Source: a virus. From it: DNA of 64,000 nucleotides. Where the stretch lies: positions 1 through 64,000 of the IMG/VR virus record IMGVR_UViG_3300042884_000193, one strand, 5' to 3'. A program made the position numbers and the translations under genes. Shown piece by piece: positions 10,735-62,244 of the stretch. Numbering within the stretch: the stretch's first letter is position 1; the number at the start of each line of letters is the position of its first letter. The notes beneath the pieces are model-generated. The model searched no databases, had not been told where the DNA came from, and saw only the letters and a program-made list of their open reading frames with translations.

Positions 10735-13700
10735 TTAATTTCTTTTGTTTTCTATTCCTTTCTCATAAGAATTACCAAATGTAAGGTTGCTAAGTAAAAT
10801 ATCAAAAATACTTTGCTGAGCTTTCTTCTTCTCAATTTGTACAAAGTTTTTGATAGCTAAACCAGGCTCTACGTTGTTACCAGTAATACCTATAGCTTTC
10901 ATGGTATAGTTGATCATTTTAGATCCCCCTTCTTTCTGCCAGCTGTAAGGACCAATATCTCTTACATAGAATGCTGCATCATCTCCTGCAATTGTAGCAG
11001 GTAACATACCTAAGATTTTACTATATGCTTCAAAGGTGGTACCGTATACTGCAGATGTTAATGCTAACTTCTGAGTGTAGTCATCTAAACCTAAACCTGG
11101 GATTGGAATCCAAGCTTCAGCATCTGCTTTTGTTTTTAATAAAAGGTATAGGGCGTGATTGCCTAGCCATCCACCAAAGTCAAAGTCAGGGTTATCCTCA
11201 TCTGTAAATAAACCAGGTAATGGGCCACTGCGCTCTCTGATCTTATTGAACTTATCATCATCCCCCATATCAAAACCAAACAGTAATCTAATTAAGATAG
11301 AGTTGATAAGAATCTGAGCTGCCTCTGCCACCATACGCATAGTAGATTTTTTCTCTTCATCAGTCATAAACATAGCACCATTGCCTACATTTCTAACATT
11401 ACGCAAAATACCGGATAGAGCTTGAACATAGAATCCCATTTCACTGTCTCCTGTTCCAATATCATATCTCTCTTCTGGGCTCCAGAACTTACCTCTATGA
11501 GCAAAACGTTTTAATAAACCTCTAGTAAAATACTTTTGTAAGAATGTAATATAGCGATATGCAACATAACGGTTAGCTTCAGGCTGGTCAAACTTAGCAA
11601 ATGCTCCTTGGATGTTTGTAATAACTCCTTGTACTCGGTTTCTGAATTTTTTGAATTCCTCAGAGTTAGATATCTTAAGCTGCTCTATTTGATCTAAGTC
11701 ATTAGACTTTAGACGGTTAAGTTCTTTAATTCTATCTACTGTAACATCATACTTCTTAGCAATTTGATCTAGTGTTTCTCCAGGTAATACATCATGGGTT
11801 ACCTTCTCGTGTGAGTATTCTAGGTTAATACCATCTTTTAATTTAAGTTGACCATCTACTTTCTCCCAAGCATCAGCATAATTGATAGTTATAGGAACAC
11901 CATCTACAGTTCTTGTGATTTTCTTATGCTCCATCATTCCCCACAACACAGACAAAGAAGCTTGCATGTCAAGCCATTGACGAGTACTTGTTAACCAAGT
12001 CATCTCAGCTGCATCACGTGCAAGTGATCGAGTTAATGATCTGCCTAATGTTTTTTGGAAGTATCCTTGAGTAGGATCAAATGCCATAGAAACTTGAACA
12101 TCAAGAGATTTGTCTTTCTCATCAGCATATAAAGAAAAACTGATACTAGCCATTACACCACCAGATCTTGCTAAACCTCTTTGGTAACTAACTAAGTTAA
12201 GATACTTACCTGCAGCTGCTTCAATATTATTTTGCAACACGGCGTCAAAGTAATTGACAAGGGCACTATCTATATTTAATCCAAAGAATCCTAATGATGC
12301 TCTCTTAAATAGTTTATTAGTAAGATTGACAATCCATTTCTGAGATAATACTCCCGTGTTGTTTTGTCCTAAGAACATCCAGTCATAGAAGTTATCTATA
12401 GTTTTAGCTCTAATGTTTTCACGCTTACCGCCTCTGTTAAACCATTTACTTCTTGCACTACGCATCTTCTTATTCATATCCTCAATAGGCTGAATAGCGT
12501 TATATTGTCCAGTAAGTGGATCCCGCATTGCATTTTTAACTGCTTTCAGAATAGGGTTCATGTCCAGTAACTCCTTCTGTACTTCTAGTGAGTAAGCATA
12601 TCTTAAGATAGTAGAACTAAGCTCAAGAGATACATTTTGATGCTCTAAGTTAGAAATACCGTGTACAGGAATTCCATCACGGTCATCATCAAAAAAATCT
12701 CCTACGGATAATCTTCTTTGTGTTGTTGATACTATTCCTTGATCATAGTCATCTTTAGCATCCTTAAAGAAATCTCGTGCATTCTGGTACCATCTCTTAA
12801 TAAGATTTTCATCTTTACCAGTACGGAATCTCTCAACAGAACCTCCAACTAACCCACCTTCAATTCTAAATCTAGGTGCATCAAGATACATCTTAGAACC
12901 TTTAGGTTTTTTGTTTTGTGCATCAAGATACAACTCTGTAGTAGCTTGTATTAATTCAAATAAAGCTGGGTTGTTTTTCTTAATCTCATAGTACTGTTCA
13001 TTGATGAAAGGACTATCAGCCGGCGCATCTTCTTTAACACGTGGTAACCACTTGTATTTGTTATCTACGGTTTTACCTACAATCTTTTCAGTTCTCCATT
13101 TAGGATCTATATAACTACTATAGTAAGCATCACTAGGTGCAAATGGAATTGTAACATCTACACCTTCTGCGTTTACATAGGTAAGGGTCTCATAGTACTT
13201 TTCTTCTGTAGGCATTACTTCACGCCAAACATTTAGAGGTTCCCAAACTTCATAATTTGCTTTGGTAGTCTCATCTCTTTTAACTCCATTTACGTGGTTC
13301 TTTGCAAAGAATGCCGCAAACTTTTTAGAGTTTTTATAGAGCTCCTGCTCTTCTAGAGTACCATCTTTTTTACCTTGATGAGCTAACTCATCTATTATAT
13401 CTTTTCTTTCTAAGAGAATCTCAATGTTTTTTCTATTTACTGTTGTGCTATTTATCAGAGCTACAACACTATCTGTATCAAGTCCTTCTAATAATGCATT
13501 AAAAGTATTAAGGTACTGATCAGTAGCTTGCTTTACTCGTAATTGCTCAAGCTGCTGACGTATCATTCTAAGAGCTAACTTATCTGCTTTGCTAAGCGGA
13601 TCACCCGCCTGTTTTTTAGCATCTAAAGCTACCTTCTTATCCATGTCTTCTTTACTGATAAAAAGTCTATCCTTAGGATTATTTTTGTTATGCTGTAACT

Positions 13701-16700: not shown

Positions 16701-17016
16701 CATAATCCTGCGCCTCAGCCGCATCCATTGTAAAGTAATTTACACTGCGGTTGTCAAGCTCATTAAAACCTTGGAACATTGACACCGTCCTAACTGGAGT
16801 AATAAACTCAGACGCAATCTCAGGAAAGCGGCTTTGGTATTGAAGAACTTTAGAAAGATCCTCTTTCATAATAGATCTAACAACATCTTCTACTGGGCGT
16901 ACTACACCTCCTGATCTAAAGACAGCATCTTTTACTGCTTCAAATAAACCTACACCTTCAGTTTCAGACTTTAATTTTGCCCATTCCGGGCTGCTAGTAT
17001 CTACTCCGCAATACAT
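10735..17016 (-). CDS. Giant virion (ejection/cargo) protein: degenerate ART-PolyVal-like domain, zincin HExxH, LysM
   Basis: 2093 aa. NYFT..EAQDYG..GYKGI..YVVLF at ~16450-16790; HEFSH at 16105-16119; LysM HDVLPGETLDQIAKKYDVTVDRIKELN at ~11670-11800; adjacent to the vRNAP gene. Confidence 0.75.
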   Translation of the reverse strand: MYCGVDTSSPEWAKLKSETEGVGLFEAVKDAVFRSGGVVRPVEDVVRSIMKEDLSKVLQYQSRFPEIASEFITPVRTVSMFQGFNELDNRSVNYFTMDAAEAQDYGSNVRRVTIDLAGTLAGDTKIYRQMTTEFQNQTGIQYDLFDDGVEGLQNQAKFYDFLRDKGYKGIDYTMFSDSPYVVLFSTDNILSEGVTRDASGVMVNELDLYIQYENFKANESSLQNTAAEFITNKPNQQVRALIGTLIDNLGNTAEANFITVEEAKQIHRDLNQPYNNQPAFFWNGAAYFVSDNVTPQMAFHEFSHPFVKALRVKNPKLYNTLIDDLLSSQEGQLIYNEVLASKPNESEDSPKVYDEVIVKAMTEAFQNRTEGNTETPQFKTAIGNILYRIRQFLRKLFSKGDTKVRLDKLGLDTTINELAEMLLNKKIADITAEDITEQDVIDYMENRNDVVEDLLKLNSNTIAKQVTFTYNSAADYLQKLKDNGYTKEIANLLKDRFSNNELREIQNNLYAQSDKIYREAETVEAEMRQAAVRAEVFATNLYKLQNIVTRINEDARNKAADAVTPEKSVEAMYALTFYKGFANYWTGYIRVIKEELDNPQIAGAYIKTNSPLYSLISNIQDEVDQLNKTINRVDRAAIGPVLYEQLMPMAAEIDEKYTNIIDILQKRIDASDGKKKDGYIRQQEDWKAKYEAIRLTPEKFEMILSGKLGDGSQANSFLESYLHNQDPVVSSIAMFVKNRLTDVDLRTAKFQDKFNKIIGPKLRENGLDKSLNPAAYGEAVTFLDESYENDKNGNLVKFPVWTILSPHKNYRYFRALQDKNIKELADIAEKSGTQADKDNLRQAKADKFNYELKYFYMDFDVRVYAPDIKIDSTPEGREAREEYSKKWQEINSLDKSFYNDPNAYTEVLTRKKQILREISELTSDKYINGDPKVDTDTNKPLTKAKLLREWMNEKRQYKIKVKNEGAFQTAITDYMQRLINKNIDPASDEFKQSVDQFLTENTKKRTTKEFDDLVKELLEQRKAIFDKIPEEKRSTMSDDEIFLRNVNKAYRDPDTGELLGLDVPDDILDEVRQAQQRINEEKYGGGKRYDGLTTEEADFYADIVSKLQHNKNNPKDRLFISKEDMDKKVALDAKKQAGDPLSKADKLALRMIRQQLEQLRVKQATDQYLNTFNALLEGLDTDSVVALINSTTVNRKNIEILLERKDIIDELAHQGKKDGTLEEQELYKNSKKFAAFFAKNHVNGVKRDETTKANYEVWEPLNVWREVMPTEEKYYETLTYVNAEGVDVTIPFAPSDAYYSSYIDPKWRTEKIVGKTVDNKYKWLPRVKEDAPADSPFINEQYYEIKKNNPALFELIQATTELYLDAQNKKPKGSKMYLDAPRFRIEGGLVGGSVERFRTGKDENLIKRWYQNARDFFKDAKDDYDQGIVSTTQRRLSVGDFFDDDRDGIPVHGISNLEHQNVSLELSSTILRYAYSLEVQKELLDMNPILKAVKNAMRDPLTGQYNAIQPIEDMNKKMRSARSKWFNRGGKRENIRAKTIDNFYDWMFLGQNNTGVLSQKWIVNLTNKLFKRASLGFFGLNIDSALVNYFDAVLQNNIEAAAGKYLNLVSYQRGLARSGGVMASISFSLYADEKDKSLDVQVSMAFDPTQGYFQKTLGRSLTRSLARDAAEMTWLTSTRQWLDMQASLSVLWGMMEHKKITRTVDGVPITINYADAWEKVDGQLKLKDGINLEYSHEKVTHDVLPGETLDQIAKKYDVTVDRIKELNRLKSNDLDQIEQLKISNSEEFKKFRNRVQGVITNIQGAFAKFDQPEANRYVAYRYITFLQKYFTRGLLKRFAHRGKFWSPEERYDIGTGDSEMGFYVQALSGILRNVRNVGNGAMFMTDEEKKSTMRMVAEAAQILINSILIRLLFGFDMGDDDKFNKIRERSGPLPGLFTDEDNPDFDFGGWLGNHALYLLLKTKADAEAWIPIPGLGLDDYTQKLALTSAVYGTTFEAYSKILGMLPATIAGDDAAFYVRDIGPYSWQKEGGSKMINYTMKAIGITGNNVEPGLAIKNFVQIEKKKAQQSIFDILLSNLTFGNSYEKGIENKRN

Positions 17017-17021
17017 ATTTA

Positions 17022-20000
17022 TTAAGATTTAAAGCACGTTCTTTGTTCTATAATATCAAGCACCATATCATCTGTTATGTTAAGAGCTGGTGTAACATCT
17101 GGTTTATCAGTCTTTAGTACAGTGTCAGAGTTTGTATTTACAACTCCAAGTTGAGCTAGAGCTTCAGACAAATATAAGAAAGTTTTAGTGCCCTTAGCCT
17201 TAATTTTATTCATGGCTCCACCTGTGAAATCACTTGCTCCAATCATACCTTGACCTAGTCCAGTTTTAGGAGTAAAGATTCTAATAGATTCTCTTCTAAC
17301 ACCTTTGTCAACTAACTCCTGGATCTTATTTTTAATACGGGCTATGTCCTCATTGATCATCATAACATTGGTATCATAGCTTGCATCTGTGAAAGACGCA
17401 TCATTATTGTATACCATATTATAAGTTCTCATTGGTATCAAGTTATCAGTACCTACATCATTCAGGATACCCACAACATTATTAAAGGTAGACAAACTCC
17501 ACGCTGGGTTTGTAGTACCGTTGTATAGGAATATGTTTCCTTCTTCCTGGCTAGCAAATACTTTCTTAATATCGGCACTAACTAAGTTATTGATACTATA
17601 CTTGTTTCCAGCAGAGAAGGTAACGGCACTTTCTTTTATACCCGTTGCTTTAGAGTTAGTCTGTGCACCCATTTTGTTGAAGGTACCATCTACCATGTAA
17701 GATCTAAATTGACGGCGAGACTTAAAGCTAGATTTACTGTTAGCCTGTTGGAACCTAGTTATATATTCTCGTATAATATTTTTCTTAGTCTTACCACTAG
17801 CAGCCTGAACAGCTTCTTCTAACACAGGATTTAAGTTTCCTTTGTCTACAAATTGCCATAATGCATTCTCACCTTTACCAGAAATACCAGTTGCAAGTAA
17901 AACAACTGTCGGTAGACGGCTAAAGAATTTAGCAATAGCTTCTTTCTCTTGGTAAGGAATGTTTAATCTTATACTTGTAGGATTAGATAACTCTTTGAAG
18001 TTCTGATAAAGCTTTTCTTTAAGTGGCTTTGAAGGTCTACGGGTCTTTAAGATAAGAACATTAGCTCCTGAAAATAAACCTTTACCGATTGCAGATGCTC
18101 TTAGCAGATCTACCAATGGGTACATTTCCTGAAGGGTAGGGTACTTTAACTTAAGTGCTTCAAATTGCATAGCATAGCTAGCCTCCCCATTAGGAATACC
18201 TCTAAATAACTTATAAATATTAAATACTTGATCTAAAGTCCTATCTCTTAAAATTTCTTCATAGACCTCACGCATAGCTGCGGCGCCTTCTTTTTCTGCA
18301 GGAATAAGTGCTGGACCTAAAACTTTGTTTAGTTGCTCTAGTTCATTAGCTGTAGCAGCTGCTGCACTTATTATATTAACTTTTTTATGAGCTCCTTGTG
18401 ATAAGAAAGTTCTTAGTTGCTGAGCACTAGGGTTAAGCAAGTAAGGTATTTTTCTTGAGTTAATTATCTCAATTGCTCTCTTAGTCTTAGTAGCATCAGC
18501 CACACCATATATAACACATGCATCAGCAAGCTCAATGTTTAAACGTAATACATTTTTAGGATCGGTTCCCTTAATGTTAAATCCAGCAAGATCATTTAGA
18601 TTTTCACCGGTTCCTGTATAACCATCAAGTTGATAACCAAATCTATCCGCAAGGTCCATTGTAAGCCTACCTATACCAGCACTACCGTCTGTGATTAATT
18701 GCTTAACCTCAAGTGGAGCATTTAATGTAAGTGAGTTCTGAGCACGCAACTCTTTTTTCTTCTGAATAAGTCTAGTTTTAAATTCAGGAGTAGTAATTAA
18801 TTGATCAACATCTGTGATTGATCTTAATATCTCTCTGTTCAGAATAAAGTTTTGATACTCCTTCTCAGTAGAGAAAAGATCAGTATCTATTTTAGCGGTA
18901 CGTACCTGCTCATTACTTATGTCTTGATGGTTAGCTACAAGAGTTGCATAGTTATTCTTTATAGACTCCTTTGATACATAAAGAATACCATTTAATACAT
19001 AGGCACCAAATGATTTAAGACCAGCTGCCTCAGCTACAGGTAATTTATTATTTACCGCAAGACCTTTGAATTCTTTTATAGTATCAATGTCTACATCATT
19101 TAAATAGTTCTGCAATAAGAACTGAATATATTGATTTTTAAGTTCATTGAGGGTAACTTCCATGTCATCATAAGTGTTCTTATCAATGCTTTTGATTGAG
19201 GACCACTCAGCTATAAGTATGTCATTGAAATCTTTATCTTCTCTTACTCCAAATAAACCACCTATTAAGTCTTTAGCAACATCTGCAATACGGAATGATG
19301 ATATAACAGAGTTATTAATCATGTGGTCAAGACCTTCAGGATTAAATCTTGCATCTTCAAGCATACCTTTAGCCAACAAATCTTTCTGCATAGTAGCAAA
19401 TAGTCTAGACTCTTTCTTAACGTCAAAGTTTGTATTTCTTTTAAGTTCTGCTAGTGCTTTACCAACGTCCTCCATCTCAAAAAAATGGAATAATACAGCA
19501 TAGTCCTCTGGTCCATATTCAGTGCTCTTATTTAAGATTTTTTTATTCAGGGTATCCTTGTTAAATAGACTCTCTGTATTGTAGTTATCTATAAGCTCAC
19601 GACCAAAAGTATAGGTCAAGTTTCCTAAGCTATACTTACCAGAACTCTCTTTTGTTCCGGTTTTAGGATCAATACTTAATGGTTCTAATTCTAAAGCTTT
19701 AAGTAGATCTATAGGATAGTCAAGTGTATTTTTTGCATTCTCAGAAATCAACATGTCTTTACGAGACTTTACACGGAAGAAGTTAGCATTCTCAGGTGCA
19801 ATGTTGCTAAGGAATGCAAACGGACTCTTAAGTATAGACATGCGTCTTACATACTCACGTATAATAGGCTGATTAACAAAGGCTGCTACATCTTCAAGAG
19901 CAACACCTGCTTGAAGCATTGCAATCATAACCGGCGCCACAGTCTTAACACCATTTAAATAAAAGATCCATGCATCTTTCTCAACGTCTACCCAACCATT

Positions 20001-23000
20001 AAGCAATTCTTCAAGTTGGTTTACAATCTTCTTGTAGTTGTTTTTACCACGTAATGCTGCTAATGATACTACAGGAACACCATCTAGTATCAAGTAGTTG
20101 TGGTCAAACTCAATAGTAAACATGCGCTTTTGTGATGACTTACCTTCAGTCTTGTACTCTCTATTTAGGTAGAGGTTAGCTTGGTTCATCATAGCATCCC
20201 CTGTAATACTTACAGCACCAATACCCAAAGATTGAAAACCTACACTATTCTCACTTAACTTTTTAATGTTATGTAAGATTTCAAAGATACGAGTAGGGCT
20301 AGTAGTCTTACCAATAGTACCATCTGCACGCAACTTATGATTATAGGTCATAACGTATTGCTCATATTTCTTAGCAATTGGTAATGCCGTTTGAGTTGTA
20401 ACAGGTCTGACAAAGTCAGAATAAGACATCAGGTCAAGTAAACCTTTAACAGAGTTTAAGAATTCATTCTCTACTCCTCTCATTCCTTTATCAGCCATAT
20501 ACACCTTTTCAGTAAGTGCGGCTTTAGCTACAGCGTATACTTGTTTCTGCTTTGGTTTAAGTGAGGCAATACCATCTTCCTCAACCAAATCAAGTATTTT
20601 ATTAAGGTACTTGATATCCAGTTTGAGGTCAGGCGAAAGAGTTTTCATTTCCTCAATATAGTTTTTATCAAACTCTCTTTGGAATGAAATGTTAGGGAAG
20701 TAACTAACCTGCTTATCTGTATCAAAGTCAGTACCTGATTTACCTACAACTTCCATAGGAAGAACTATAATAGGTCCCGCATTTTCATCAAGGAATTCAT
20801 ATACCTGTAAGTACTCAATAAAGTTTTCTTTAGCTGTAGGGATACGTACAGTAACTATAGTAATAAGATCCTCATACTTGGCTAACCATGACTCTTCTCT
20901 AATTAATTGATTAAGAGCTTGCAATCTTGTAATAGGTGCTTCACTTTCAGCTACTCTCTGGGTAGTCTCTTCCATCATAAGTAACTTCTTGAAGTCACCA
21001 TTTATACCCATTTTAGCTCCGGCTTTTGTAAAGTGACCGTCTTCTGTTATGTTATAAAACGGTAAGTCACCAGTACCTAGATACTTGAGTCTCTCTTCTT
21101 CAGTAGCATATCTAAGTTTCTTTTCTGCATAGTTTCTGGTAAATCCAGAGTTACTTACTTGTACCAACTGATCACCTTTAATTTTAGGTTTAATGAGTGA
21201 TTTATTAATCATGCTCATTAAAAGCTTTTCTATATCATCTGCACCAAAGCTCAAACTTAAATCACTATTGATTTTACCAGTCTTTGGATCATAAGATATG
21301 TCATTTATTATATGGCTTGGTAAACCGAGAACAGCTAGTTGATTTCTCAAAAACTCAACCATGCCTTTAGCATTATTGGTTTTATTGCCTTCTTCGTCTA
21401 TTACACCAAATCTTTTATATAGCTTTTCAGTATTAGCTGCAACAAGAGACAACAATGCTTTTTTGTAGCGATTAACTGCCACATACTTTGGTGACTCTTT
21501 CTCTTTTTGATTTTCCGTTAACTCACTCCAAGCTTTAATTCTATCAACAGGTTTACCATCAAACTTAAAGTCAACAGGTACACCATACTCATCCATATTA
21601 TTAATGATGGCTTTTCTCATCTGTGTAGCAAGGTTTGTCTTGCCTTTGTACTTGTCTGAGATTTCAGCCTGCTTCTTAAAATACTGTAAGAATAAAGTGT
21701 TAGGTGTGAATCTATAGTTCTCATCAACAAGAGCCAACTCTCTATTTTCTATATCGGAATAGAAAAGATCTGTTTTACCATTATTAGTGAAATGCATAAG
21801 CTTGCTACCTGATTCATATGTAGCAATATCCATATTCTGCTCTACCATTTTGTTATGAAGTACATTTAATTCTGTACCTTCAATAACATTAGGGATCAAT
21901 GGGAAGATCTCAAACTTAAGAAGTGCATTTAAAGGTAATCCGGTTCCTGATAAAGGACCATCATATTGCATCTTAAGGATAGGGAATATCTGTAAAAGAT
22001 CTGATCTAGATTCTGTAATGTACTCCTTCTTAAGTATCTTTTTATAAAGTGCTTCTTGCTCAGGGCTCCATTGATCAAGTTGATCACATAGACCTCTATA
22101 GAAGTCAAATGCTGCCCAACCTTGACCATCTCCCTCTTTCATATTACCATAGGCTTCATCAACCATTTCAGTAATTTCTGCAGTAAGCTGCTCCCTCAAA
22201 ACTGCTTGTTCCTCCTCACTAGCATCCTTATACATATCTAGTGCTTCAAGTGCTGCCATGTCATCACCCAAAATACTATTCAATATCATATCATAGTATA
22301 TTGACTTAATCTTAGCTTCTTTAAAAACAGCAAAAGTTGCTTGTTGACTGAATGGTTTAATAAATGTCGGCTCAACACCTACATACTTTACGCCATTATA
22401 AGTATAGTCAGCAAACCATGGAGAATCAACGTATGGCTTACTTAAGAAATCATTTAAATAGTCAAGACGCTCCTTACTAAGTATTGGGAATTTACCAGAT
22501 GATTGTGCTGGGGCATTACGTTTATGGAATTCATCTGACGCATTGTTAAATTGCGCAGCATCACCATGTATAATAACAGTAGTTTCTATATTATGTATGA
22601 GTGAGTTTGTCACATAAGCCAGCAATGCGGCTTGGTAAGCATCTTGGTCACTAACTTCTGATCTTATACCATTAGACAAAGCCTCATTCCTAACTGTATT
22701 AATAACATTAGGATCAATAAAAGGATTCTCATTAGGGTATAGCTTTGCTATGTCACCAATAAGAGCATTCTGCGTATTGGAGTATTGTCTGATCAAATAG
22801 CTTCTGATATCTTTTATTACATTGTCTGCAATGTCACCACCTTCTTCAGATTCTCTAAAGGCTATATCAGCCATAAGAGCATCTAGGCTTTCTCCAGATA
22901 AACCGTATAGTTTATCCTTTGTGGCATCAGTAAAAATATCATCAAATAAAGTAAATACTGTACCTCTATCATAGAAGGTATTTTTACCATCGTTTGCTAA

Positions 23001-27560: not shown

Positions 27561-27563
27561 TGT

Positions 27564-29111: not shown

Positions 29112-32100
29112 GATTTTGTTTTTTCTTGAGCTACGTTATTTATTTCTTCTTCAGAAGGATTAATATCAGAAAGCTGGATAACCTTTTGTGTACTAGATAC
29201 CGAAATAATCAAAGCACTTCCTGCATTAGGATGTATTTTATTGAAGCCATCCCACTGGTCACTCTTAAGTACTCCATTTTTAGATGCAGGTTTTGCACTA
29301 AATGAGCCGGCATCAAATGCACCAATTGTGAGGTCTTCCGGTTTTACCTGAAACTGCTGCATGATATTCTCACCCTCCTGCTTAATAGCGTTGATACTTC
29401 CTGTAAACTCTCTAACAATTGTATTACCCTTCTGATCTTTAAAGATAAAGATAACAGTTGATCCAGAGAAGCGGCTATATAAATCTTTACCATTAGCCTT
29501 TTTACTAAAGGTAAAGCTATAAGCCTTATCACCAGATTTAGTTGTTAAACAGTAAGCTTTATCATATAAGTTAACTTGAGAGTTAAAATCAATATCTCCA
29601 AATTTCCATTGGATTAATTTAGTAATTGCATTATCATCAGCAGTTAGCTCAGAAGCTAATTTAAATTGCATATTAACAACATCTTCTCCATCTTGTCTAG
29701 GCCTAAATTTAAATACCGGAACATAATCTGTTGGTTTAACATCATATGTACCTATACGAGATTTGAAATTATTCTTTGCTTCATTAAACTTAGTAACTGT
29801 TGTATAACGACTTAGGTCACCTCCTGTATTATCCATAATGTAGAAGTGGGCTACACCAACAGTGTTATCATATGTAGTTTGACCTACACGATCTCTTGTA
29901 CTGTTACTGGCTCCTGTAATATACTCAAATCCTACATCATTAAACCACTGATTACGGTACATCATAATACTATCTAGTAACTGTTTTCCAGGTCCTATAG
30001 CGCCTTGACTATCAGCAAGCCTTCCTAAGTTTTGGAAGTAAGTATTTTGTCTGATATACTCAAGTTTATTATTTGATTCTATGATTGCTTTTGCATCAGA
30101 TAACATTTCATAGTTAACAGCCTCCTCTTTAACAGCTGCAATATCATAGATACCATACTTAATTAAACCTCTGTACATGGTTTGCTTATAAGAATCAGAT
30201 ATAGGTAGTATTGACATAGTATTATCTATAACATTGACCATACTCCATACAGGTCTTTCAGCCATTTCTTCACCTATCTCAGCTTCAGTATTTCCGCTAA
30301 AGTCAAATCCAGCCACACCTGTATATGTAGAAAGGGCAATCATTAACCCAATGGTCATCTTCTTGAGTTTTCTAATTATACGGCTGATGATACCATCCTT
30401 TTTTGTTCTAGGTGCTTTATCAGCTTCAGTTTTACTTCTAGCAAAGTTTGCAGTATTCAAATAGTTAAGAACTGCATTTTTAATACTAGTTACAACATCA
30501 GTTATAGATTTACCCTCTTCATCAGCAATCTCTTGTAGATCTTCAGCTGAAGCCTCCTCAGCAATAAATACATCAATAGGTTGGGCTATTCTATTTAGTA
30601 AGAAAGTAACTGGGTCCATACCTGAAGCCATAGCATCACCTAAAACATCAAGCGGCGTCTGTAATGTGTTATTGATAAACTCTTCATAAAGAGCATCAGA
30701 CATTAACAAACCATCTTGTATTTTGATAAATGACTTAGTCTTGTTATAAGTTACACGTCCTGCAGAGTCTTTGAAAAGAACCATTTCCTTAGCTAGGCTT
30801 TGGAACTGAGCTTGAATCTCAGGAGACAACCTAGATATAAAAGATCTGAATGGTGTATTAGTCAAATACTGAATAACAAGTTCCTGTGCAGGATTCTTAT
30901 CAAACATGTAATTAATTTTCTCAATATATACGCCTACATTAGGGTCACCTCCTGCCTTACTTATTTCTTGCAGAACAGGGCGTAGTATATTTATAAGAGA
31001 CTGTGCCTGAGCATTGTAATCTTTGTCAGATTTAGGCCCAGTCCTATCCATATACATGTGAAGAATTCTATGTAGCGTATTCTCCATAGTACTTCTATTC
31101 TCTAATAGAACATTGTCGCCACGCTTGGTACCTAATGCTTCTAAGTTAAGAATAGTATTTGCATCAATAGTCATTCCTTGCTCAGCAAAGAACTTTACAA
31201 AACCATACTGGGTTAATTGTTCTACTACAAAGTCTGCAAGTATCTCACGAGTATTATCTACCACTTGCGGTTTAGTAGATGACATCTCAGGAGTTCCTGC
31301 ATTAGGCTGTACACCTCTCTTGACTCTTCTGGCTCCAACAGTCTTACTTGCTTTAATTAAAATTTGCTTAAGTTTTCTTAGATACTTCTGAATTGAATCT
31401 AATACTTTAGCTAGTTTCTCTTTAAGCTTACCGCCAGTTTTCTTATATGCTCTACGTAATTTCTCATAGTTGTTCTCTAAAGCTTGTGGCATTCTAGAGT
31501 AAGACTTTTTCATAGCATCACGGACAGAACCTAATGCATCTTTAATACTTTGCATTGTTTCTTTAGCAAGCTCTGAAAATGGAGGAGTTTTACCTTCATT
31601 AGCACGACGCTGAGCCTCATCCATCTCTTGTTCTACCTCTCTAGAAGTATCATCAATTCTTGATTCACCTTCTTTAACATCATCACTATCCTCAGGGTTG
31701 CTATTGATTTCCTCATCTACTTCTTCCTCTTCTGTCTTTATAGACTCACCCCCAGAAACAAATTTTTTAAATCCCTCTTTGTCTTGTTTAGTTCCCAGTA
31801 TGTAAATTTGTTCAGGCTCAAATACAACTAAAAATGGGCTATCCTGATCTCTAATTCTACCTTTATTAGTTAATGCATTATAGTTATTATCTAATAACCA
31901 CTGTACGTCTTCCTTAGAAATGCTTACTAAATCAATTTCTTTTTGGTCTTTATTTCTTTTTTCTACCTGCTTAACATTATCATAGGGTCTAACATTTACA
32001 AGGGCACTATAAACTTTTTTATTTTTATCTTTGAAAATAAACTTTTTAGTATATCCTTCCGCCTCTGTTTTATTATAAGCAAAATAAATCCCCTCTTTGG

Positions 32101-35100
32101 TATTGAAGTCATTTTTCTTATAACCTTCTTCTCCGGGTTTATAAAATCTTCCTAAATTTTCTATTCCGATATTTCCTCCATGATAAACAATATTTTTTTC
32201 TTGGCTATCCGGAAATATAGTAGTAAGGTATTGAGAGTATTGTTGCAGAGTCCCGATAGATGCTAATTCAAGATCAGCATCAAATAATTCTTTAACACCG
32301 CCTTTTATTTCTTCTGTCTTCTCTGGTTCTGCTTTAGTAGTAGTTGTTGTTGTTCTTCCTAATAAAGGTTCAAACTGTTTTGTTTGTTTATTATAAACTT
32401 CTACATCTTTAGCTTTTACAACCTCATTTTCTTTAAAGTTTGCTTGATTAACTCTAATAGTTTCAGTAGTGTCTTTATCTCCGTACCAGTTTTTATTATT
32501 TCCCTTAGTCCAATACTTAGTATTTTTATTACCACCTCTTTGTTTACCCTCTCTTGAAAATACACCACCACTTTCTATAATTGCATCTATTTCTGTTTGT
32601 GAGAGTGTACGATAATTATAACCTTCTTCCGATATATGGTCATCAGCAGATGCTTCACCTAATTGCAGATTACTTTCAAATACTCTATTTGTAAATCCTT
32701 CTGGTGTAATTACTTCTTTAGTAGTAGTTGTAGTTGCAGGTCCGGCTTTTTTCTTAAGTACTGGAAGTTGAATGTTAACTGTGTTGTTAGCTTGATTATA
32801 TGAAACACGAGCATTAGGCATAAGAGCTAATATCTCTTCTTTTATTTTATTAAACTCTTCTCTATTTGCAACAGTTATTGGATTATATAAGTCTTCTTTC
32901 TCTTGCTGACTCTTGGCATTTCTAAGACCTTCTTTTGAAGCAGCATTTAAACTAATACTGCTCATTACAGGATTACCACTAGCATCTGTAAGAATTTCAT
33001 ATTCTCTATTTAGTTGTTGAGCATAAAGCTTAAGACCTTCTAATGATATATTAGTTGATTCAGTATACTCATGATCTACAGGAAGTCTAGACTGAACTTC
33101 AGATAGCATAGTTTTAAATGCTTCTTTGTTACCAGACTCATTTGATATTTTAGATGTCCATCTGTTTGTGGGCTTATCATTTACATATAATCTGACATAG
33201 CCTACATAATCATTATCACTTGTTCCTGACATGATAACATCCACAACACCACTTATAGGATTGGTATACACAGCCATTCCAATTCCATTTACCTCTGTAT
33301 ATGCAGATATTTTAGATCGTCTTCTTTCTAATTCTGCTTCTAGCTCCTGAGCTTTTTGCTCATCTTTCTCTACAAGACGAGCTTTTTTTATTTCATTTTC
33401 TAATACAGATTCAGAGTCACCAATAGCTTGCGCAAAATTGGAAGTTTCTGGAAACATCTCGGTATCTCTATTAGCCTGTACATCTGTAGTAGTTTCTGTA
33501 TCCATTGGTACAACTAGAGGTACAAACTCTTCTGTTGTTGTACCTCCTGAAGCAGCTAGTTCTGCATTGTATTTAGTGTCTAACCATTTTTGACCTTCAG
33601 CATAACTGTCAAAAGTTTTTTGTTCTCCATAGTTATTTACAATATATACATTCTGGCCAACCGGTCTTATGTTATCTAACTCGTTATAATCAAAAGGTCT
33701 TACATGTGTAAAAGTAAATCTATTTCTTTCATAGGAAGATTGACTTCCTGGCTCTAATGAATAGCTTATTTTTTTTCTTCTTTCTATATCATCAATTTGA
33801 GCTTGTATAGCTGGATCAGTTGTTGTTGACTCCGCAACAGGTACTTCAAGCTTTGCTTTAACCTCAGCTTGAATAGCATCTAACTTATTCTGGATTACTC
33901 TTAGGTTATTGATAAGCTGTATTACATTAGGCTTTGTATTCTCATCAATAGGTATACTAAGTGTAGCAGAAGCAGCATAAGGCTTTGGATCTATAATAGT
34001 ACCATCAGCTTTGACCTGACCATTAAGATAGAATATAAAATCTATAGGACTATCAAGATAAGTATCCATATCCTCTCTTCTGATAATGCTGAAACCATCC
34101 ATTGTTACAACGGTAAAGTCACCAGGTTTACCTGAAGAGAAAGGCATGTTTTCTTGATTACCAAAGAAGTCAGCTAATGTTAGATTACCGAGCTCATTTA
34201 GCATTGAGTTTATCAATTGAACTTGGGTTATAGCGACAGCAGATTTCTGAGATATAGCTTTATCAATTGCTTCTTTATATGCTTGATAGATCTCATCTTG
34301 ACGTGGCGTCAATGATCCTGCTTCTACGGCAACTTTGATATCTAGTAGAATCTGATCTGATACCGGCTCATTATTTTTAAATGCACGGTATGCGTCATCT
34401 GTAATAATCTCAGGTGTAATACTTACTGATCCAGATCCTCCTTGTGATTGACCAGGAGTTTGTGCTTGACCTCCACCAGTGCGACCAGTTGTAATATTAA
34501 ACTGATCAATAACATATGCAGCAAAAGGATTAGTAGTTACAAATGTCTCAAAGTCATCTGGTGTTTCTCCTGTAGCTTGTTGTTGAGGTAAGTATGTATT
34601 AGTATATACATTCTGAAGACTAGTAACAAGATCAGTAAGAGCCATAATCTCTTTTATATCTGTCTGCTGGGTAATAGGTACACCTCCTGGTTGACTGTTG
34701 CCACCGGTTGTGCCGCCTTGTCCAGACATATTACTTCCAGAGGTACCTTGCTTATCAAATGTATGAGCTGTTAAGTTAATTACCTCATCCAATAAGCTGT
34801 CATTCTTTGAAGGATTAATTCTAAAGATTTTGCTTAAGAAATCAAATAATGCTTTCTTAAACTCAGACCACATAGATATAGGTGTAGACTTAGGACCATT
34901 ATAGGTTATGTTTTGAAGTATTGCTTGGAATGTACCATTAGTCAATGCCTCTGCAACAAAGGTGCGCACATCATCTAAACCAATTGGTAAGATAGATGTT
35001 TTAGATGTCTTATAGTATTCAGATTTAGCTAAGTTTAATAACTGAGTCATCTGTAACTCAAATTGCTCATTCTCATCTATCTGACGGTTAACTAAGTATT

Positions 35101-38100
35101 GTAATGCACCGTTTAAGATAAGTGACTCTAATCTTAGAGTACCACCAATATAATCTGATGATGCAAAACGAGCATCAACTACAATACCACCAGTATCACT
35201 AAACCTTACAGGTACTGTAGCATTTTTAACAAAACGTATTTGGATCTTGTCTGATACAAGGTTCATAAGCTTCTTAGCTAAGAACTTATCATACTTACCA
35301 GCAAAGCCACTTATACTTACAGCCTTTAATATCTCCTGCAAAGAAACAGATTGATCAAACTGATCAATGTCCAGGTTAAACTGTGCATAGATCTGTTTTA
35401 ATATTCTTTTATCTGTAGCATCTTTGTCTAGTCTATTCAAAGAGAACTCATCTTGAAATTCAGATATGGTTTTACCACTTAAAGTTTTACCAGTAGATCT
35501 TTCAAAGTTATCTATCTCTTGAAGAACCTCTTTGTACTTTGGGTGGTTATGGTCAATAGTTTCCATATTCTCCGCATCTACAAACTCGTCTGGTAAAATA
35601 CCATCATCCTCAAATGCTTTAACAAATCTAGGATCAAAGAATATCTTCTTATTTATTAAGTTATTAAGAAATGCATTTAAGTCATTCTTGTGCTGAAGTG
35701 CATCCCAAATCTTTTCTCTTTGTAGCTTGCTATTTTTATGTACAAACTCAAGGGCCTCTTTAATTCTACCGTGGTGTATATTAAAACCTTCTGGATCATG
35801 TAGTCTATTCAATGCATCAACAGCATTACCTAGATCTGATCCATGTTGCATCATTTCTACTAAGTTGTTAAATGCCTTGTCAATGTTCTCATCAAGAACC
35901 ATATCTTTATTTACTCCGGCCTTAAACTTAAGTAAAGTATAAAAAGAATTGCGTAAATCGGTAATAGCGTTCTCTATATCAACAGTTACAGGATCCACAA
36001 TATCACCAGTAACAGGATCTCTTTGGATCTTATCTCTATTTTTAGCATAGTCTACAGCTGCCGATTTTAATTTATCTGTAACTATATCATATGTTGCTAA
36101 GTAATTTTTATAGTGTGCTAACTCAGTATCAATTTCCGCAAGCTTTTTAGCAGCCTCATCTGATGTTGCAGCAGCCTCAGCATATACAAGTCTTTCTTTA
36201 GCTAGTAAATCTACCTCTGTAGCAATTCCTCCACGGGTCATCATGTTTGTAAATGCGATACCCGACATTGATTGTAGGGGTTTGCTCTTAGAAGCTCTTG
36301 CTGTAATTTCAGAAATATAATCTTGAGCAGTTACAAGTTTAGTCTTCATTAATGCCATGTCAAATCTTACATCCTCAAATGCAATGTATTTGTACATCTC
36401 ATCTTCAAACTTCTCTTTGTCCTTTACTTGATCATACTGCCAAGGATTATAATGATTTTTTAAGCTTTGAGCTTCCTCAAAACTTTGTTTCATCATATCT
36501 ACTTTTTCAATAGAATTTGTAAGTCTATCTCTTAAACTTTTATTATCACCTTCTGCTTCTAGTTTTACACCAGGGAAAGCAGCCTGAAGATCTTTGTCCT
36601 CTAAGTTTAAGAACTCACTTAATGTATCTTTTAATAAATCAGTTTGACCGGACTTAAATAAAGTATGTAATTTTTTAAATAGCGCAAGATCTTGTGCCTC
36701 TAATTGAGAATGGGCAGATCCCGCATTACGACCCATCATCATAAAATCGGAGAAGCTTACCTGATGCGCTAGGTCACTGTCTATCATATTAAAGAAAGCC
36801 TGTGGGTTTGTATCCATTACAGCTACAACCTCCATAAAATCTTTCTTGAATTCAGCTCTTTGTTTTTTTACATTACTATATGTTTTATCTATGCCTAATT
36901 TATCAGCAACTATTGCAGGCGCTGTCTGTGTGGCAAAGTTTAAGGCTTGTCCATATTTACCCATAACACTACCAATAGCAAAACCACTAATAAATGTCTC
37001 TAAACCTTGTGCTGTAAATTGTTCATCTAATCCTTTTTGAAAGGATGCACGCATTCCAGCAGACTGAGCTAACTCAGGAGTTAAATATAATTTTGTATAG
37101 TAATCTTTATATCCCGTAGAAATCATCTCCTGATAGTTTTCTTGAAGACCTTCAGGGGCACCCGCAATAAACATATTCTTTACACGGCTAGGTGATGTTT
37201 GTAGTATGTGCTTATAGTATAATCTTGAGTTCTTAGCAAAAGGATTAAGCCTGCTTAATCCAGCTTTAAATCCTGTTTCAAGGATCACTGTTTTACCACC
37301 ATCTCTCACGGCCTTACCACCCACAGCTGCACCAACATTAAGCAACCTATCAGATGCTCTACCAATACCTCTAAACATATTGTTTAGAGTAATCTTATTA
37401 GTGTAAAAAATTATAGGTGCATTTGCTTTTGTTGTGGCGGCTCCTGCAGTTGTAGCAAGTTCATTTAATCTATTAATCTCTTGATCAGTAAGATTTCCTT
37501 TTTGTTTAGTTACTTCATTAATAATATCATTTTGCACCATACCTCCTTCAAGACGAGACTCTGACATTGCCATGTTTATTTCAGAGGCATCTCTGAAAAA
37601 CTCCCCAAATATAGTACGACCTTGTGCAATTGCAGTCATTGTTTTTCCTGCTCTTACTCCTTTAATTGCGTCAAGTCCTAGTCTAGTACTTCTAAAAAAA
37701 GGATTAGCAAAAGCATTAAGTGTTTTAGCAGTACCTACAGCTGCAAATCTAGCAGCTTGATAAAAGTCTTTTGCTCTATTTACAGTTTTTATTGTACGCA
37801 TTAATTCAGAACCTGTAGATAAAGTTCTACTAAGCTGCATTAAATTTCTACCCATTCGGGGTAGTGTAAATTCTGAAAGTGATCCTCTTGATGCTGTAGT
37901 AAGAGCTGCTAATGCAACTTCTTCTGCAGCAAATTCAGTAATAGCTCCTAATGAATATTGCAATGAACCAAATATATTTGCAGCGCTTCCCCAAAAACCT
38001 TCACGATCAGAGTGCATTAGATCTAATTGATCTGCAAAAAGTTGTGCAGCATAAGGATCTGTATCTTTATTCCATTCTACCCAGCTCGATGCTTGGTCAG

Positions 38101-38632
38101 CCATACCCCGACCAAATAATTCCATATTAGCAGCTGTCTGAAAATCATCCCATCCTGTAGTGTATTGTAAATAATAGTCATTATTATTTCTATATGGGTG
38201 AAAACCCACATCATCAAACTCATTATGATTATACCATTTTGCAAATCTTCTTCCATCAACATTAGCTCCATATATTCTATCTCCTGCCATGTGATAGTTT
38301 GTAGGACTAGACCATTGTTCTGATGCAATCATTTGAGCACCTGCTCCTTCAGCAAATGCCATAGATGACGTAGGTTTAGGTTGCGGTCCTCCATCAAAAC
38401 CAGCAGCCAAAACAGGAGAGTTCTCTTTAAATTTATCAGATGCAGCTTTTACCTCAGAATCAATTACTGTAACTAAAGGAGGAACATTACTAGATTCAGC
38501 AATATCCATCATATTGGGTGTATCTTCTAAAGCTAAATTGTTAAGCATATTAGCAGATTCAGATACAGGAATATTTGCATTCATATCAAAAGCCTCTTGA
38601 TTAAATGCCTCAGATTGTAAGTTTTCTGCCAT
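29102..38632 (-). CDS. Giant polyvalent virion ejection protein (degenerate zincins, GNAT-like, two ART-like modules, TM)
   Basis: 3176 aa; IVYHG..GIYFA..VVFEPEQI ART-PolyVal at ~31760-32310; Thr-run linkers; hydrophobic helices. Confidence 0.75.
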   Translation of the reverse strand: MAENLQSEAFNQEAFDMNANIPVSESANMLNNLALEDTPNMMDIAESSNVPPLVTVIDSEVKAASDKFKENSPVLAAGFDGGPQPKPTSSMAFAEGAGAQMIASEQWSSPTNYHMAGDRIYGANVDGRRFAKWYNHNEFDDVGFHPYRNNNDYYLQYTTGWDDFQTAANMELFGRGMADQASSWVEWNKDTDPYAAQLFADQLDLMHSDREGFWGSAANIFGSLQYSLGAITEFAAEEVALAALTTASRGSLSEFTLPRMGRNLMQLSRTLSTGSELMRTIKTVNRAKDFYQAARFAAVGTAKTLNAFANPFFRSTRLGLDAIKGVRAGKTMTAIAQGRTIFGEFFRDASEINMAMSESRLEGGMVQNDIINEVTKQKGNLTDQEINRLNELATTAGAATTKANAPIIFYTNKITLNNMFRGIGRASDRLLNVGAAVGGKAVRDGGKTVILETGFKAGLSRLNPFAKNSRLYYKHILQTSPSRVKNMFIAGAPEGLQENYQEMISTGYKDYYTKLYLTPELAQSAGMRASFQKGLDEQFTAQGLETFISGFAIGSVMGKYGQALNFATQTAPAIVADKLGIDKTYSNVKKQRAEFKKDFMEVVAVMDTNPQAFFNMIDSDLAHQVSFSDFMMMGRNAGSAHSQLEAQDLALFKKLHTLFKSGQTDLLKDTLSEFLNLEDKDLQAAFPGVKLEAEGDNKSLRDRLTNSIEKVDMMKQSFEEAQSLKNHYNPWQYDQVKDKEKFEDEMYKYIAFEDVRFDMALMKTKLVTAQDYISEITARASKSKPLQSMSGIAFTNMMTRGGIATEVDLLAKERLVYAEAAATSDEAAKKLAEIDTELAHYKNYLATYDIVTDKLKSAAVDYAKNRDKIQRDPVTGDIVDPVTVDIENAITDLRNSFYTLLKFKAGVNKDMVLDENIDKAFNNLVEMMQHGSDLGNAVDALNRLHDPEGFNIHHGRIKEALEFVHKNSKLQREKIWDALQHKNDLNAFLNNLINKKIFFDPRFVKAFEDDGILPDEFVDAENMETIDHNHPKYKEVLQEIDNFERSTGKTLSGKTISEFQDEFSLNRLDKDATDKRILKQIYAQFNLDIDQFDQSVSLQEILKAVSISGFAGKYDKFLAKKLMNLVSDKIQIRFVKNATVPVRFSDTGGIVVDARFASSDYIGGTLRLESLILNGALQYLVNRQIDENEQFELQMTQLLNLAKSEYYKTSKTSILPIGLDDVRTFVAEALTNGTFQAILQNITYNGPKSTPISMWSEFKKALFDFLSKIFRINPSKNDSLLDEVINLTAHTFDKQGTSGSNMSGQGGTTGGNSQPGGVPITQQTDIKEIMALTDLVTSLQNVYTNTYLPQQQATGETPDDFETFVTTNPFAAYVIDQFNITTGRTGGGQAQTPGQSQGGSGSVSITPEIITDDAYRAFKNNEPVSDQILLDIKVAVEAGSLTPRQDEIYQAYKEAIDKAISQKSAVAITQVQLINSMLNELGNLTLADFFGNQENMPFSSGKPGDFTVVTMDGFSIIRREDMDTYLDSPIDFIFYLNGQVKADGTIIDPKPYAASATLSIPIDENTKPNVIQLINNLRVIQNKLDAIQAEVKAKLEVPVAESTTTDPAIQAQIDDIERRKKISYSLEPGSQSSYERNRFTFTHVRPFDYNELDNIRPVGQNVYIVNNYGEQKTFDSYAEGQKWLDTKYNAELAASGGTTTEEFVPLVVPMDTETTTDVQANRDTEMFPETSNFAQAIGDSESVLENEIKKARLVEKDEQKAQELEAELERRRSKISAYTEVNGIGMAVYTNPISGVVDVIMSGTSDNDYVGYVRLYVNDKPTNRWTSKISNESGNKEAFKTMLSEVQSRLPVDHEYTESTNISLEGLKLYAQQLNREYEILTDASGNPVMSSISLNAASKEGLRNAKSQQEKEDLYNPITVANREEFNKIKEEILALMPNARVSYNQANNTVNIQLPVLKKKAGPATTTTTKEVITPEGFTNRVFESNLQLGEASADDHISEEGYNYRTLSQTEIDAIIESGGVFSREGKQRGGNKNTKYWTKGNNKNWYGDKDTTETIRVNQANFKENEVVKAKDVEVYNKQTKQFEPLLGRTTTTTTKAEPEKTEEIKGGVKELFDADLELASIGTLQQYSQYLTTIFPDSQEKNIVYHGGNIGIENLGRFYKPGEEGYKKNDFNTKEGIYFAYNKTEAEGYTKKFIFKDKNKKVYSALVNVRPYDNVKQVEKRNKDQKEIDLVSISKEDVQWLLDNNYNALTNKGRIRDQDSPFLVVFEPEQIYILGTKQDKEGFKKFVSGGESIKTEEEEVDEEINSNPEDSDDVKEGESRIDDTSREVEQEMDEAQRRANEGKTPPFSELAKETMQSIKDALGSVRDAMKKSYSRMPQALENNYEKLRRAYKKTGGKLKEKLAKVLDSIQKYLRKLKQILIKASKTVGARRVKRGVQPNAGTPEMSSTKPQVVDNTREILADFVVEQLTQYGFVKFFAEQGMTIDANTILNLEALGTKRGDNVLLENRSTMENTLHRILHMYMDRTGPKSDKDYNAQAQSLINILRPVLQEISKAGGDPNVGVYIEKINYMFDKNPAQELVIQYLTNTPFRSFISRLSPEIQAQFQSLAKEMVLFKDSAGRVTYNKTKSFIKIQDGLLMSDALYEEFINNTLQTPLDVLGDAMASGMDPVTFLLNRIAQPIDVFIAEEASAEDLQEIADEEGKSITDVVTSIKNAVLNYLNTANFARSKTEADKAPRTKKDGIISRIIRKLKKMTIGLMIALSTYTGVAGFDFSGNTEAEIGEEMAERPVWSMVNVIDNTMSILPISDSYKQTMYRGLIKYGIYDIAAVKEEAVNYEMLSDAKAIIESNNKLEYIRQNTYFQNLGRLADSQGAIGPGKQLLDSIMMYRNQWFNDVGFEYITGASNSTRDRVGQTTYDNTVGVAHFYIMDNTGGDLSRYTTVTKFNEAKNNFKSRIGTYDVKPTDYVPVFKFRPRQDGEDVVNMQFKLASELTADDNAITKLIQWKFGDIDFNSQVNLYDKAYCLTTKSGDKAYSFTFSKKANGKDLYSRFSGSTVIFIFKDQKGNTIVREFTGSINAIKQEGENIMQQFQVKPEDLTIGAFDAGSFSAKPASKNGVLKSDQWDGFNKIHPNAGSALIISVSSTQKVIQLSDINPSEEEINNVAQEKTKSCQ

Positions 38633-42150: not shown

Positions 42151-42206
42151 AATTATGTTATAAAAGTATTACAAAAGATTTAGATTTACTAAACCTCATA
42201 AATTTA

Positions 42207-45641: not shown

Positions 45642-45652
45642 GTAATTAGTTA

Positions 45653-48028: not shown

Positions 48029-48234
48029 TATCCGTAATGTGAAAGGTCTTGTTTCATTTTAGTAAAGAGGTCTGCGCCAAGTTTCATCTTAGGCAGATCT
48101 TGAGGCATTGTGTACTGACCCATTGGGTTGTACATAGCTGGTCCTCCTTCTTGCATAAAGAAGTATCTTCTATCATAAGTTCCTCCCTCGGACATTACAA
48201 TAGGGACACCAAAAAGGTTCTCGTAGTTATACAT
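48028..48234 (-). CDS. Small protein with tandem M-x-EGG motifs
   Basis: 68 aa; MSEGG, MQEGG and PKMKLG; TAATG coupling to the next gene. Confidence 0.6.
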   Translation of the reverse strand: MYNYENLFGVPIVMSEGGTYDRRYFFMQEGGPAMYNPMGQYTMPQDLPKMKLGADLFTKMKQDLSHYG

Positions 48235-48266
48235 ACAGCTAAGTTACATTATATTGTTAAGATACT

Positions 48267-48278
48267 CAAATTTAGTTA
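48267..48278 (-). promoter_or_regulatory. Candidate TAnnTTTG promoter element
   Basis: TAACTAAATTTG on the - strand, identical to the 12-mer at 3435-3446 (+). Confidence 0.35.
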
Positions 48279-60699: not shown

Positions 60700-60704
60700 T
60701 TTAG

Positions 60705-62207: not shown

Positions 62208-62244
62208 ATATATAATTTACTGTTTTTTTATCTATTATCAAAAT

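Follow-up and report, generated by a model that had tools for sequence, protein, structure and literature searches.

Cysteines at the junction-facing ends of giant cargo proteins in a crAss-like phage suggest head-to-tail disulfide tethers

We analysed the first 64 kb (hereafter the window) of the IMG/VR virus record IMGVR_UViG_3300042884_000193, a 119,556-bp sequence with direct terminal repeats, and found a block of four consecutive genes whose products carry a cysteine (Cys) at each of the six ends facing a junction between consecutive proteins and none at the two outer ends of the block. The genes are co-oriented on the minus strand and encode, in order, proteins of 3176, 515, 3512 and 2093 amino acids (aa), the third being a virion RNA polymerase (vRNAP). 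Comparison with relatives strongly supports a junction-specific role for the terminal Cys. Guided by these sequences and by analogy with a bond seen in another phage family, we favour, with some reserve, the reading that head-to-tail disulfide tethers join the four cargo proteins in this phage.

The first protein (3176 aa; 29102..38632, minus strand) starts with a Cys-free N-terminus (MAENL..) and ends ..KTKSCQ, its two Cys being the internal Cys3028 and the second-last residue, Cys3175. The second (515 aa; 27564..29111, minus strand), which runs from MSVNC.. to ..TLRC, contains only Cys5 and Cys515, its last residue. The vRNAP (3512 aa; 17022..27560, minus strand; MSC.. to ..RTCFKS) has Cys at positions 3, 1825, 3015 and 3509, while the last protein (2093 aa; 10735..17016, minus strand) has a single Cys at position 3 (MYC..) and a Cys-free C-terminus (..ENKRN). 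The block is tightly packed, with a 10-nt overlap between the 3176 aa and 515 aa genes and spacers of 3 nt before the vRNAP gene and 5 nt before the 2093 aa gene. On the minus strand, the junction-facing residues are encoded by TGT at 29108..29110 (Cys3175), TGC at 29097..29099 (Cys5 of the 515 aa protein), TGT at 27567..27569 (Cys515), TGT at 27552..27554 (Cys3 of the vRNAP), TGC at 17034..17036 (Cys3509, the fourth residue from the vRNAP end) and TGC at 17008..17010 (Cys3 of the 2093 aa protein).

An earlier note on this DNA had counted two, two, four and one Cys in the four proteins by eye, and both these totals and the placement of six Cys at the junction-facing ends, with Cys-free outer ends, agree with our exact count. 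Six of the nine Cys lie within six residues of the six junction-facing ends. Overall Cys content is 9 in 9296 aa (0.097 %), as against 128 in 10,908 aa (1.17 %) for the other 20 open reading frames (ORFs) listed for the window. Were the nine Cys placed at random, at least six would occupy the 36 terminal positions that face a junction with a probability of only 2.8e-13, which bears out the note's judgement that the terminal Cys are unlikely to be due to chance.

By its sequence the 3512 aa protein is a crAss-type vRNAP. In tblastn searches it matches phi14:2 g066, annotated as 'Catalytic RNA polymerase subunit' (E 5e-10), as well as the RNA polymerases of crAss002 and IAS, with identities of 22–28 % including that to g066, and it carries a catalytic motif of the DFDxD type, DFDTD, at residue 2278. 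The 2093 aa protein has a zincin-type motif, HEFSH, at residue 300 and a LysM domain at residues 1742–1774, and the aligned N-terminal 700 aa of last proteins give the consensus VxHEFxHPL; a zincin-like protease domain has been ascribed to gp65 of phi14:2 (10.1101/2020.03.07.982082), which fits the HEFSH motif here. The phage is probably a divergent crAss-like one and the four genes its RNA-polymerase cargo block, the products of which would be packaged and injected. The cargo proteins of crAss001 have been detected in virions by mass spectrometry (PMC10172136), and those of phi14:2 are annotated as virion proteins by mass spectrometry in the annotation notes of its record. The block also shows a second zincin-type motif besides that of the last protein, HEAYH (HExxH) at vRNAP residue 721 in the N-terminal third, which is near-invariant among 28 homologues with the consensus YHEAWHGF. 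In the 3176 aa protein, residues 2148–2276 weakly match the Pfam family ART-PolyVal (E 4.6e-5; 24.6 bits, where the cut-off is 31.2 bits). Pfam and PHROG gave nothing but sub-threshold matches for the 3176 aa, 515 aa and vRNAP proteins, and phmmer of the vRNAP against the PDB gave matches at chance level only.

To judge conservation we used 95 vRNAP homologues from a database search (1987–5548 aa, 22–97 % identity), counting a Cys as terminal when it lay within 10 residues of an end. A C-terminal Cys is present in 94 of the 95 and an N-terminal Cys in 77, and 64 have exactly two Cys, one per end and none elsewhere; together the homologues contain 228 Cys in 357,909 aa. The sequence without a C-terminal Cys is P0037, and P0026 is exceptional in having eight Cys. 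Aligned across 28 sequences, C3 and C3509 are invariant, as are the catalytic residues D2278, D2280 and D2282, while Cys1825 and Cys3015 are not conserved. Two alignments of 44 rows each, one of the C-terminal 250 aa of vRNAPs and one of the N-terminal 700 aa of the proteins that follow them, have a single invariant column apiece, and in both it is the Cys.

This degree of conservation also bears on the possibility, raised for metal bridges by the earlier note, that the paired Cys bridge a metal or cofactor, or are buried contacts of a non-covalent tail-to-head docking motif. Short conserved motifs do flank the Cys, with heads of the form MxxCPNxxxP and tails of the form ..EDPFKC, as such docking might have it, but two thiols are too few for a usual zinc site and no conserved His, Cys or Asp accompanies the Cys in the two 44-row alignments. 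We regard this explanation as quite unlikely.

The 515 aa protein, although rarely found, follows the same pattern. Its four relatives, at 92, 74, 27 and 26 % identity, all have two Cys only, one at position 4 or 5 and the other at the last or second-last residue. The rarity of the family is seen in every search: the homologue search returned two matches and a full-library phmmer three, the IMG/VR pattern scan found no relative, INPHARED gave no tblastn match, and no blastp match was found among the ORFs of 159 related loci.

Those 159 loci come from two IMG/VR scans (79 and 80 loci), in which plus-strand ORFs were called from the first ATG and junctions were defined as consecutive ORF pairs, each of at least 300 aa. 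The scripted counts include loci L111–L132; the readings made by eye leave them out. Among 457 unique junctions, Cys is found on both sides in 193, on neither side in 238, on the C-terminal side only in 3 and on the N-terminal side only in 23. Fisher's test on this table gives p of about 1e-97, a value that is not a true probability because the sequences are related. We read most of the 23 N-side-only junctions as a Cys-rich gene that follows the train of cargo genes, and one of the three C-side-only junctions is a mis-called start (L054). In the first clade of loci the upstream protein has a C-terminal Cys only, the vRNAP has both, and the downstream protein has a Cys at position 3–6 only.

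Within 154 unique trains (968,988 aa, 0.053 % Cys), 414 of 516 Cys (80 %) are junction-terminal. The N-terminal Cys sits at positions 3–6 and never at position 2, and the C-terminal Cys lies 1–10 residues from the end, most often as the last residue. Complete trains number 116, of which 63 have two members, 47 three, two four and four one. An outer-end Cys occurs in only 11 of them (seven N-terminal, four C-terminal), all of which we read as locus edges, a mis-called start or an adjoining inserted unrelated gene.

The Cys-rich gene that follows the train in many second-clade loci (L083–L156; for example L083:28830-32102) has a head of its own kind, MNVTCSAEPCPV.., with Cys at 5, 10 and 18 and often at 28 and 49 as well. 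Two other uses of terminal Cys were considered and rejected. Split inteins or chemistry resembling native chemical ligation would require intein halves (an N-intein is about 100 aa) for which Cys 1–10 residues from the ends leave no room, and there was no intein or Hint family among the Pfam matches of the four window proteins at E of at most 0.01. A lipoprotein-type N-terminal Cys is likewise rejected, as the N-termini, read by eye, have no signal peptide or lipobox before the Cys at position 3–6.

One feature of the window could suggest that the pattern arises secondarily from nucleotide constraints at junctions, such as start/stop overlap or coupling signals, or from gene calling. The TGT codon of Cys3175 overlaps the ATG of the next gene (29111-29109; the sequence of the overlap is tcATGTcagTAA), and since the two share bases, this Cys taken alone could be a by-product of gene overlap. 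Overlap of that kind is, however, found at only 3 of the 193 Cys–Cys junctions among relatives. Moreover both Cys codons are used at junction-terminal positions (TGT 346, TGC 68 in the 154 trains), the positions of the Cys vary, and crAss001 gp47 conforms to the rule with a gene that lies on the other strand and not beside that of gp50. We give this explanation almost no credence.

How the Cys behave upon gene fusion and fission, a check that the earlier note had proposed, can be followed in the relatives. In the second clade (80 loci) the vRNAP ORF is about 3,800–5,250 aa long and lacks an N-terminal Cys, a Cys-free protein of about 900 aa is encoded directly upstream, and the zincin motif of the vRNAP ORF is shifted inwards by about 900 residues relative to the window. 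We read this long ORF, from its sequence, as the first protein fused to the vRNAP, and there is no Cys pair at the former boundary between the two. Similar cases are found among the last proteins. The 583 aa protein of L030 (Cys 4 and 581) aligns with residues 1–563 of the last protein of L022; the latter, of 2352 aa, has Cys 4 and 1647 and none at the boundary equivalent to the end of the 583 aa protein. Likewise the 534 aa protein of L156 (Cys 3, 366 and 534) aligns with residues 4–543 of the last protein of L075, where the only Cys is at position 5.

Modules also cross junctions freely, as seen for one of about 450 aa. It lies inside the vRNAP C-terminus in L043 (residues 3401–3851 of a protein with Cys only at 3 and 4029) and inside the last protein in L069 (residues 235–651; a single Cys, at 3), and in L076 it forms a protein by itself, of 655 aa and with Cys 3 and 655.

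Splits add Cys where fusions lack them. The last protein of L105 is divided into a 421 aa protein (Cys 3 and 420) and a 1739 aa protein (Cys 3), and the fused vRNAP of L104 into proteins of 2015 aa (Cys 2013) and 2149 aa (Cys 4 and 2147), with the new tail and head resembling the junction that this genome already had. In L105 an ORF with a GIY-YIG-like motif (L105:24313-25016) lies between the halves of the split last protein, both new ends of which have Cys. Two apparent fissions, in L079 (1613 and 789 aa) and in L137 (2512 and 1653 aa, in overlapping frames), are without Cys and look like frameshifts or assembly errors. The earlier note's suspicion that the terminal Cys belong to junctions thus held up in relatives: the ends are conserved in the vRNAPs, two-sided junctions far outnumber one-sided ones, outer ends are not equally Cys-bearing, and the pattern follows gene fusions and fissions, the pair being missing from fused proteins and found where a module has become a separate protein. 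As we read these comparisons, the Cys mark polypeptide breaks and not particular domains, and selection would keep exactly one Cys to either side wherever one polypeptide ends and the next begins.

Fusion and fission are also informative about whether the terminal Cys could be recognition or processing sites, for instance for zincin-type proteases, or packaging marks on chains that stay unlinked. Candidate protease domains are at hand in the form of the HExxH motifs of the vRNAP (721) and the last protein (300), and the phi14:2 preprint suggests cleavage of polyproteins and that the gp65 protease may activate the RNA polymerase (10.1101/2020.03.07.982082). Against this, the fused forms are Cys-free at precisely the internal boundaries where cleavage would be needed, and proteins encoded separately need no cleavage site at their ends, making this role very unlikely. 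The same preprint reports that the three cargo proteins are fused in some phages. Such fused crAss polyproteins have the continuity of a peptide bond, whereas in the window continuity would come from reversible disulfides.

The rule extends to cultured phages. In phi14:2 the only Cys of gp67 is its last residue (1797 of 1797), gp66 has Cys 3 and 2179 only, and the only Cys of gp65 is at position 3. In crAss001 gp47 has Cys 2339 of 2341 residues, gp50 has Cys 5, 1334 and 2404, and gp49 has Cys 5. The blocks gp67-gp66-gp65 of phi14:2 and gp47-gp50-gp49 of crAss001 thus share the arrangement (-,C)(C,C)(C,-). The crAss001 gp47 gene is on the strand opposite to gp50 and gp49 and does not adjoin gp50, which ties the rule to the proteins rather than to neighbouring genes. 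Common to the window and both blocks are a homologous DFDxD vRNAP and giant flanking proteins, and a last protein with a zincin motif is found alike in the window and in Crassvirales cargo blocks. The window differs in that a fourth member, the 515 aa protein, stands between its first protein and its vRNAP and has a Cys at either end, and its cargo proteins are much larger than those of phi14:2 and crAss001.

A covalent link of the predicted type has been seen in one structure, that of a phage of another family. Cryo-electron microscopy of the cyanopodophage A4 virion revealed that Cys1715 of gp27 and Cys5 of gp26 are joined by a disulfide, which is described as stabilising a folded ring (PNAS 2025, PMC12002296). 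In the A-4L record these are the only Cys of gp27 (1717 aa) and gp26 (1114 aa), and the pair is kept at about 25 % identity in Pf-WMP3, Pf-WMP4 and TR020, three further Saffermanviridae examined out of 20 matching records, 18 of which are below 60 % identity. As in the window, consecutive genes encode large ejection proteins that are otherwise Cys-poor, with a C-terminal Cys facing a Cys at about position 5; unlike the window, A4 is a 42 kb T7-like cyanophage with one link between two proteins and no vRNAP. The part of the A4 paper available to us contains no generalisation, chain, or discussion of fusion and fission (PMC12002296), and we found no order-wide rule of multiple links that tracks breaks in print. 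Nor did a literature search, which did not cover supplements, find a paper stating a terminal-Cys rule for Crassvirales or crass-like phages.

We also looked for likeness to A4 at the level of sequence and fold. A phmmer search against PDB chains returned LysM proteins only. A 700-residue model of the N-terminus of the 2093 aa protein (predicted local distance difference test score, pLDDT, 67.9) gave no Foldseek match to the PDB at E of at most 0.001, and VIA-align on the same model gave generic helical matches only, with a best Z of 8.9. The A4 precedent is an analogy, because no sequence homology to gp26 or gp27 was found.

Suppression of Cys by itself is a known property of ejected proteins. 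The ejection proteins of Schitoviridae (N4 gp50, DEV gp71–gp73) are depleted in Cys, a trait attributed to their route across the periplasm (PMC11445570), and the window resembles them in combining a giant virion RNA polymerase with companion ejection proteins in which Cys is strongly suppressed. In Schitoviridae, however, Cys is essentially absent even from the ends, whereas the window keeps one at each junction-facing end. The window proteins therefore do not fit the Cys-free type of Schitoviridae: internal Cys are nearly absent and terminal ones are conserved.

Periplasmic passage raises the alternative that the thiols are free in the capsid and become oxidised only after ejection, for example by host periplasmic Dsb, locking a trans-envelope assembly. 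Such a scheme would agree with the assembly of virions in a reducing cytoplasm and with Cys suppression having been ascribed to a periplasm that contains disulfide-forming enzymes (PMC11445570). The A4 bond, on the other hand, was seen inside the mature capsid (PMC12002296), and a vRNAP must act in the cytoplasm; we consider oxidation after ejection improbable.

Returning to head-to-tail tethers, we propose that cargo proteins have been purged of Cys, as ejected phage proteins often are, and that within virions a C-terminal Cys would bond with the N-terminal Cys, at position 3–6, of the protein that comes next. The resulting chain would be 3176 aa – 515 aa – vRNAP – 2093 aa, nearly linear because the bonds would lie within a few residues of the ends. 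Free of branches and loops, such a chain could go through the narrow channel of portal and tail as a single unfolded polypeptide would; it may be threaded in order from N to C, and reduction in the host cytoplasm may then part the four proteins from one another. A tether would explain the polarity of the block, in which the outer ends are without Cys, and the purge of other Cys, by which mispaired, branched or looped products are avoided. It would also explain why the Cys are so close to the chain ends, giving a near-linear product that is threadable like a single chain, and how the Cys behave on fusion and fission. That crassvirus particles can contain disulfides at all, as crAss001 does in its tail and gp57 dimer (PMC10172136), also favours this reading. 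The disulfide train claimed by the earlier note is therefore partly supported: the junction-specific role of the terminal Cys stands on strong comparative evidence, and the bond itself remains a prediction by analogy, a virion bond of this kind having been seen only in A4.

In crAss001, gp47, gp49 and gp50 have been treated as unresolved cargo in the capsid that must partly unfold to exit, and N-to-C ejection has been proposed for gp45 (PMC10172136). The methods for virion mass spectrometry mention reduced as well as non-reduced samples (PMC10172136). The word 'cysteine' does not occur in the available text of this crAss001 atlas (PMC10172136), and neither cysteine nor disulfide occurs in the available text of the phi14:2 preprint (10.1101/2020.03.07.982082).

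Several observations weigh against disulfide tethers or against the strength of the pattern. Virions assemble in a reducing cytoplasm and many of the hosts are anaerobes, leaving the oxidant of a putative crassvirus bond and the time at which it would form unexplained. We did not find a disulfide between cargo proteins reported for any crassvirus in the literature, the crAss001 atlas describing disulfides of tail and capsid with the cargo unresolved (PMC10172136), and the window proteins gave no BLASTP match below E 0.04 to A4 gp26 or gp27. Kinship among the sequences inflates all counts, and 26 of the 457 unique junctions are discordant. An N-terminal Cys is missing from 18 of the 95 vRNAP homologues, although 12 of these (P0077, P0085–P0095) bear about 900–1700 extra N-terminal residues and the remaining six look like truncated or mis-started calls; P0076 has as many as 33 Cys. 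Two junctions of L104 have nearly the same tail and head motifs (..KKCKG/MGVCPNIKLP and ..AKCKG/MATCPNINLP), which argues against strict specificity of pairing, and sequence alone cannot separate heterotypic from homotypic bonds. When the vRNAP C-terminus (250 aa) was co-folded with the N-terminus of the 2093 aa protein (700 aa), the score was 0.04 against a mark of 0.32 and the fold of the partner was uncertain, a result that weighs neither way on binding.

Some of these points lead to the suggestion that the terminal Cys bond homotypically, with the same end of a second copy, or with another partner such as portal, tail or capsid, making dimers or anchors. The parity of the Cys fits pairing at the same site equally well, disulfides between subunits occur elsewhere in the crAss001 particle, in the tail and in the gp57 dimer (PMC10172136), and L104 indicates that flanking sequence need not encode a unique partner. 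Homotypic bonds leave unexplained, however, both the Cys-free N-terminus of the first protein and C-terminus of the last, and the loss of the pair on fusion and its gain on fission, and the bond in the A4 structure is heterotypic, from C to N (PMC12002296). We judge homotypic or anchoring bonds unlikely and retain head-to-tail tethers as the reading we favour.

Other Cys features of the window lie outside the block. Upstream of it, at 38632..52528 on the minus strand, are four Cys-poor proteins of 1172, 1144, 791 and 1418 aa, which are presumably further ejected cargo; we place them outside the train because none has a terminal Cys, and none has a PHROG match. The 1144, 791 and 1418 aa proteins (42207-52528, minus strand) have no Cys at all, and the 1172 aa protein (38632-42150, minus strand) has only Cys128 and Cys134. 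This pair recurs in counterparts of the 1172 aa protein, at 128 and 134 in proteins of about 1000 aa in L006, L020, L042 and L056, at 128 and 133 in L066 and at 127 and 133 in L074, and comparable pairs are found in crAss001 gp45 (390 and 398) and phi14:2 gp69 (369 and 378). The pair may reflect a local disulfide, or a metal site, that is conserved in a further cargo protein. At 60154-63930 on the minus strand there are three Cys-rich proteins, with 10 Cys in 181 residues, 28 in 500 and 25 in 561 (4.5–5.6 %), in contrast to the Cys-poor cargo block.

It is conceivable that tethers of this sort amount to a Crassvirales-wide split polyprotein, in which giant proteins are stitched by terminal disulfides into a thread of about 9,300 residues, pulled from N to C in fixed order and stoichiometry and unzipped by host thiol reductases. 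Breaks in such a thread would be movable if each gains a Cys pair, and the device would be shared with unrelated cyanopodophages and may even be general. We advance this wider proposal tentatively and would not yet wager on it.

Podophages must drive protein cargo of megadalton size down a narrow tail, and in the correct order. If the tethers are real, a conserved covalent link that can be read from sequence would offer a concrete mechanism, testable in phi14:2 and crAss001, which are both culturable. It would explain why cargo proteins tolerate fission, fusion and the shuffling of modules, and would give annotators a simple rule to recognise the members of the cargo train and their order in uncultured crass-like genomes. 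It would also give a positive function to the few Cys left in ejected proteins, and connect it with the well-known scarcity of Cys in such proteins.

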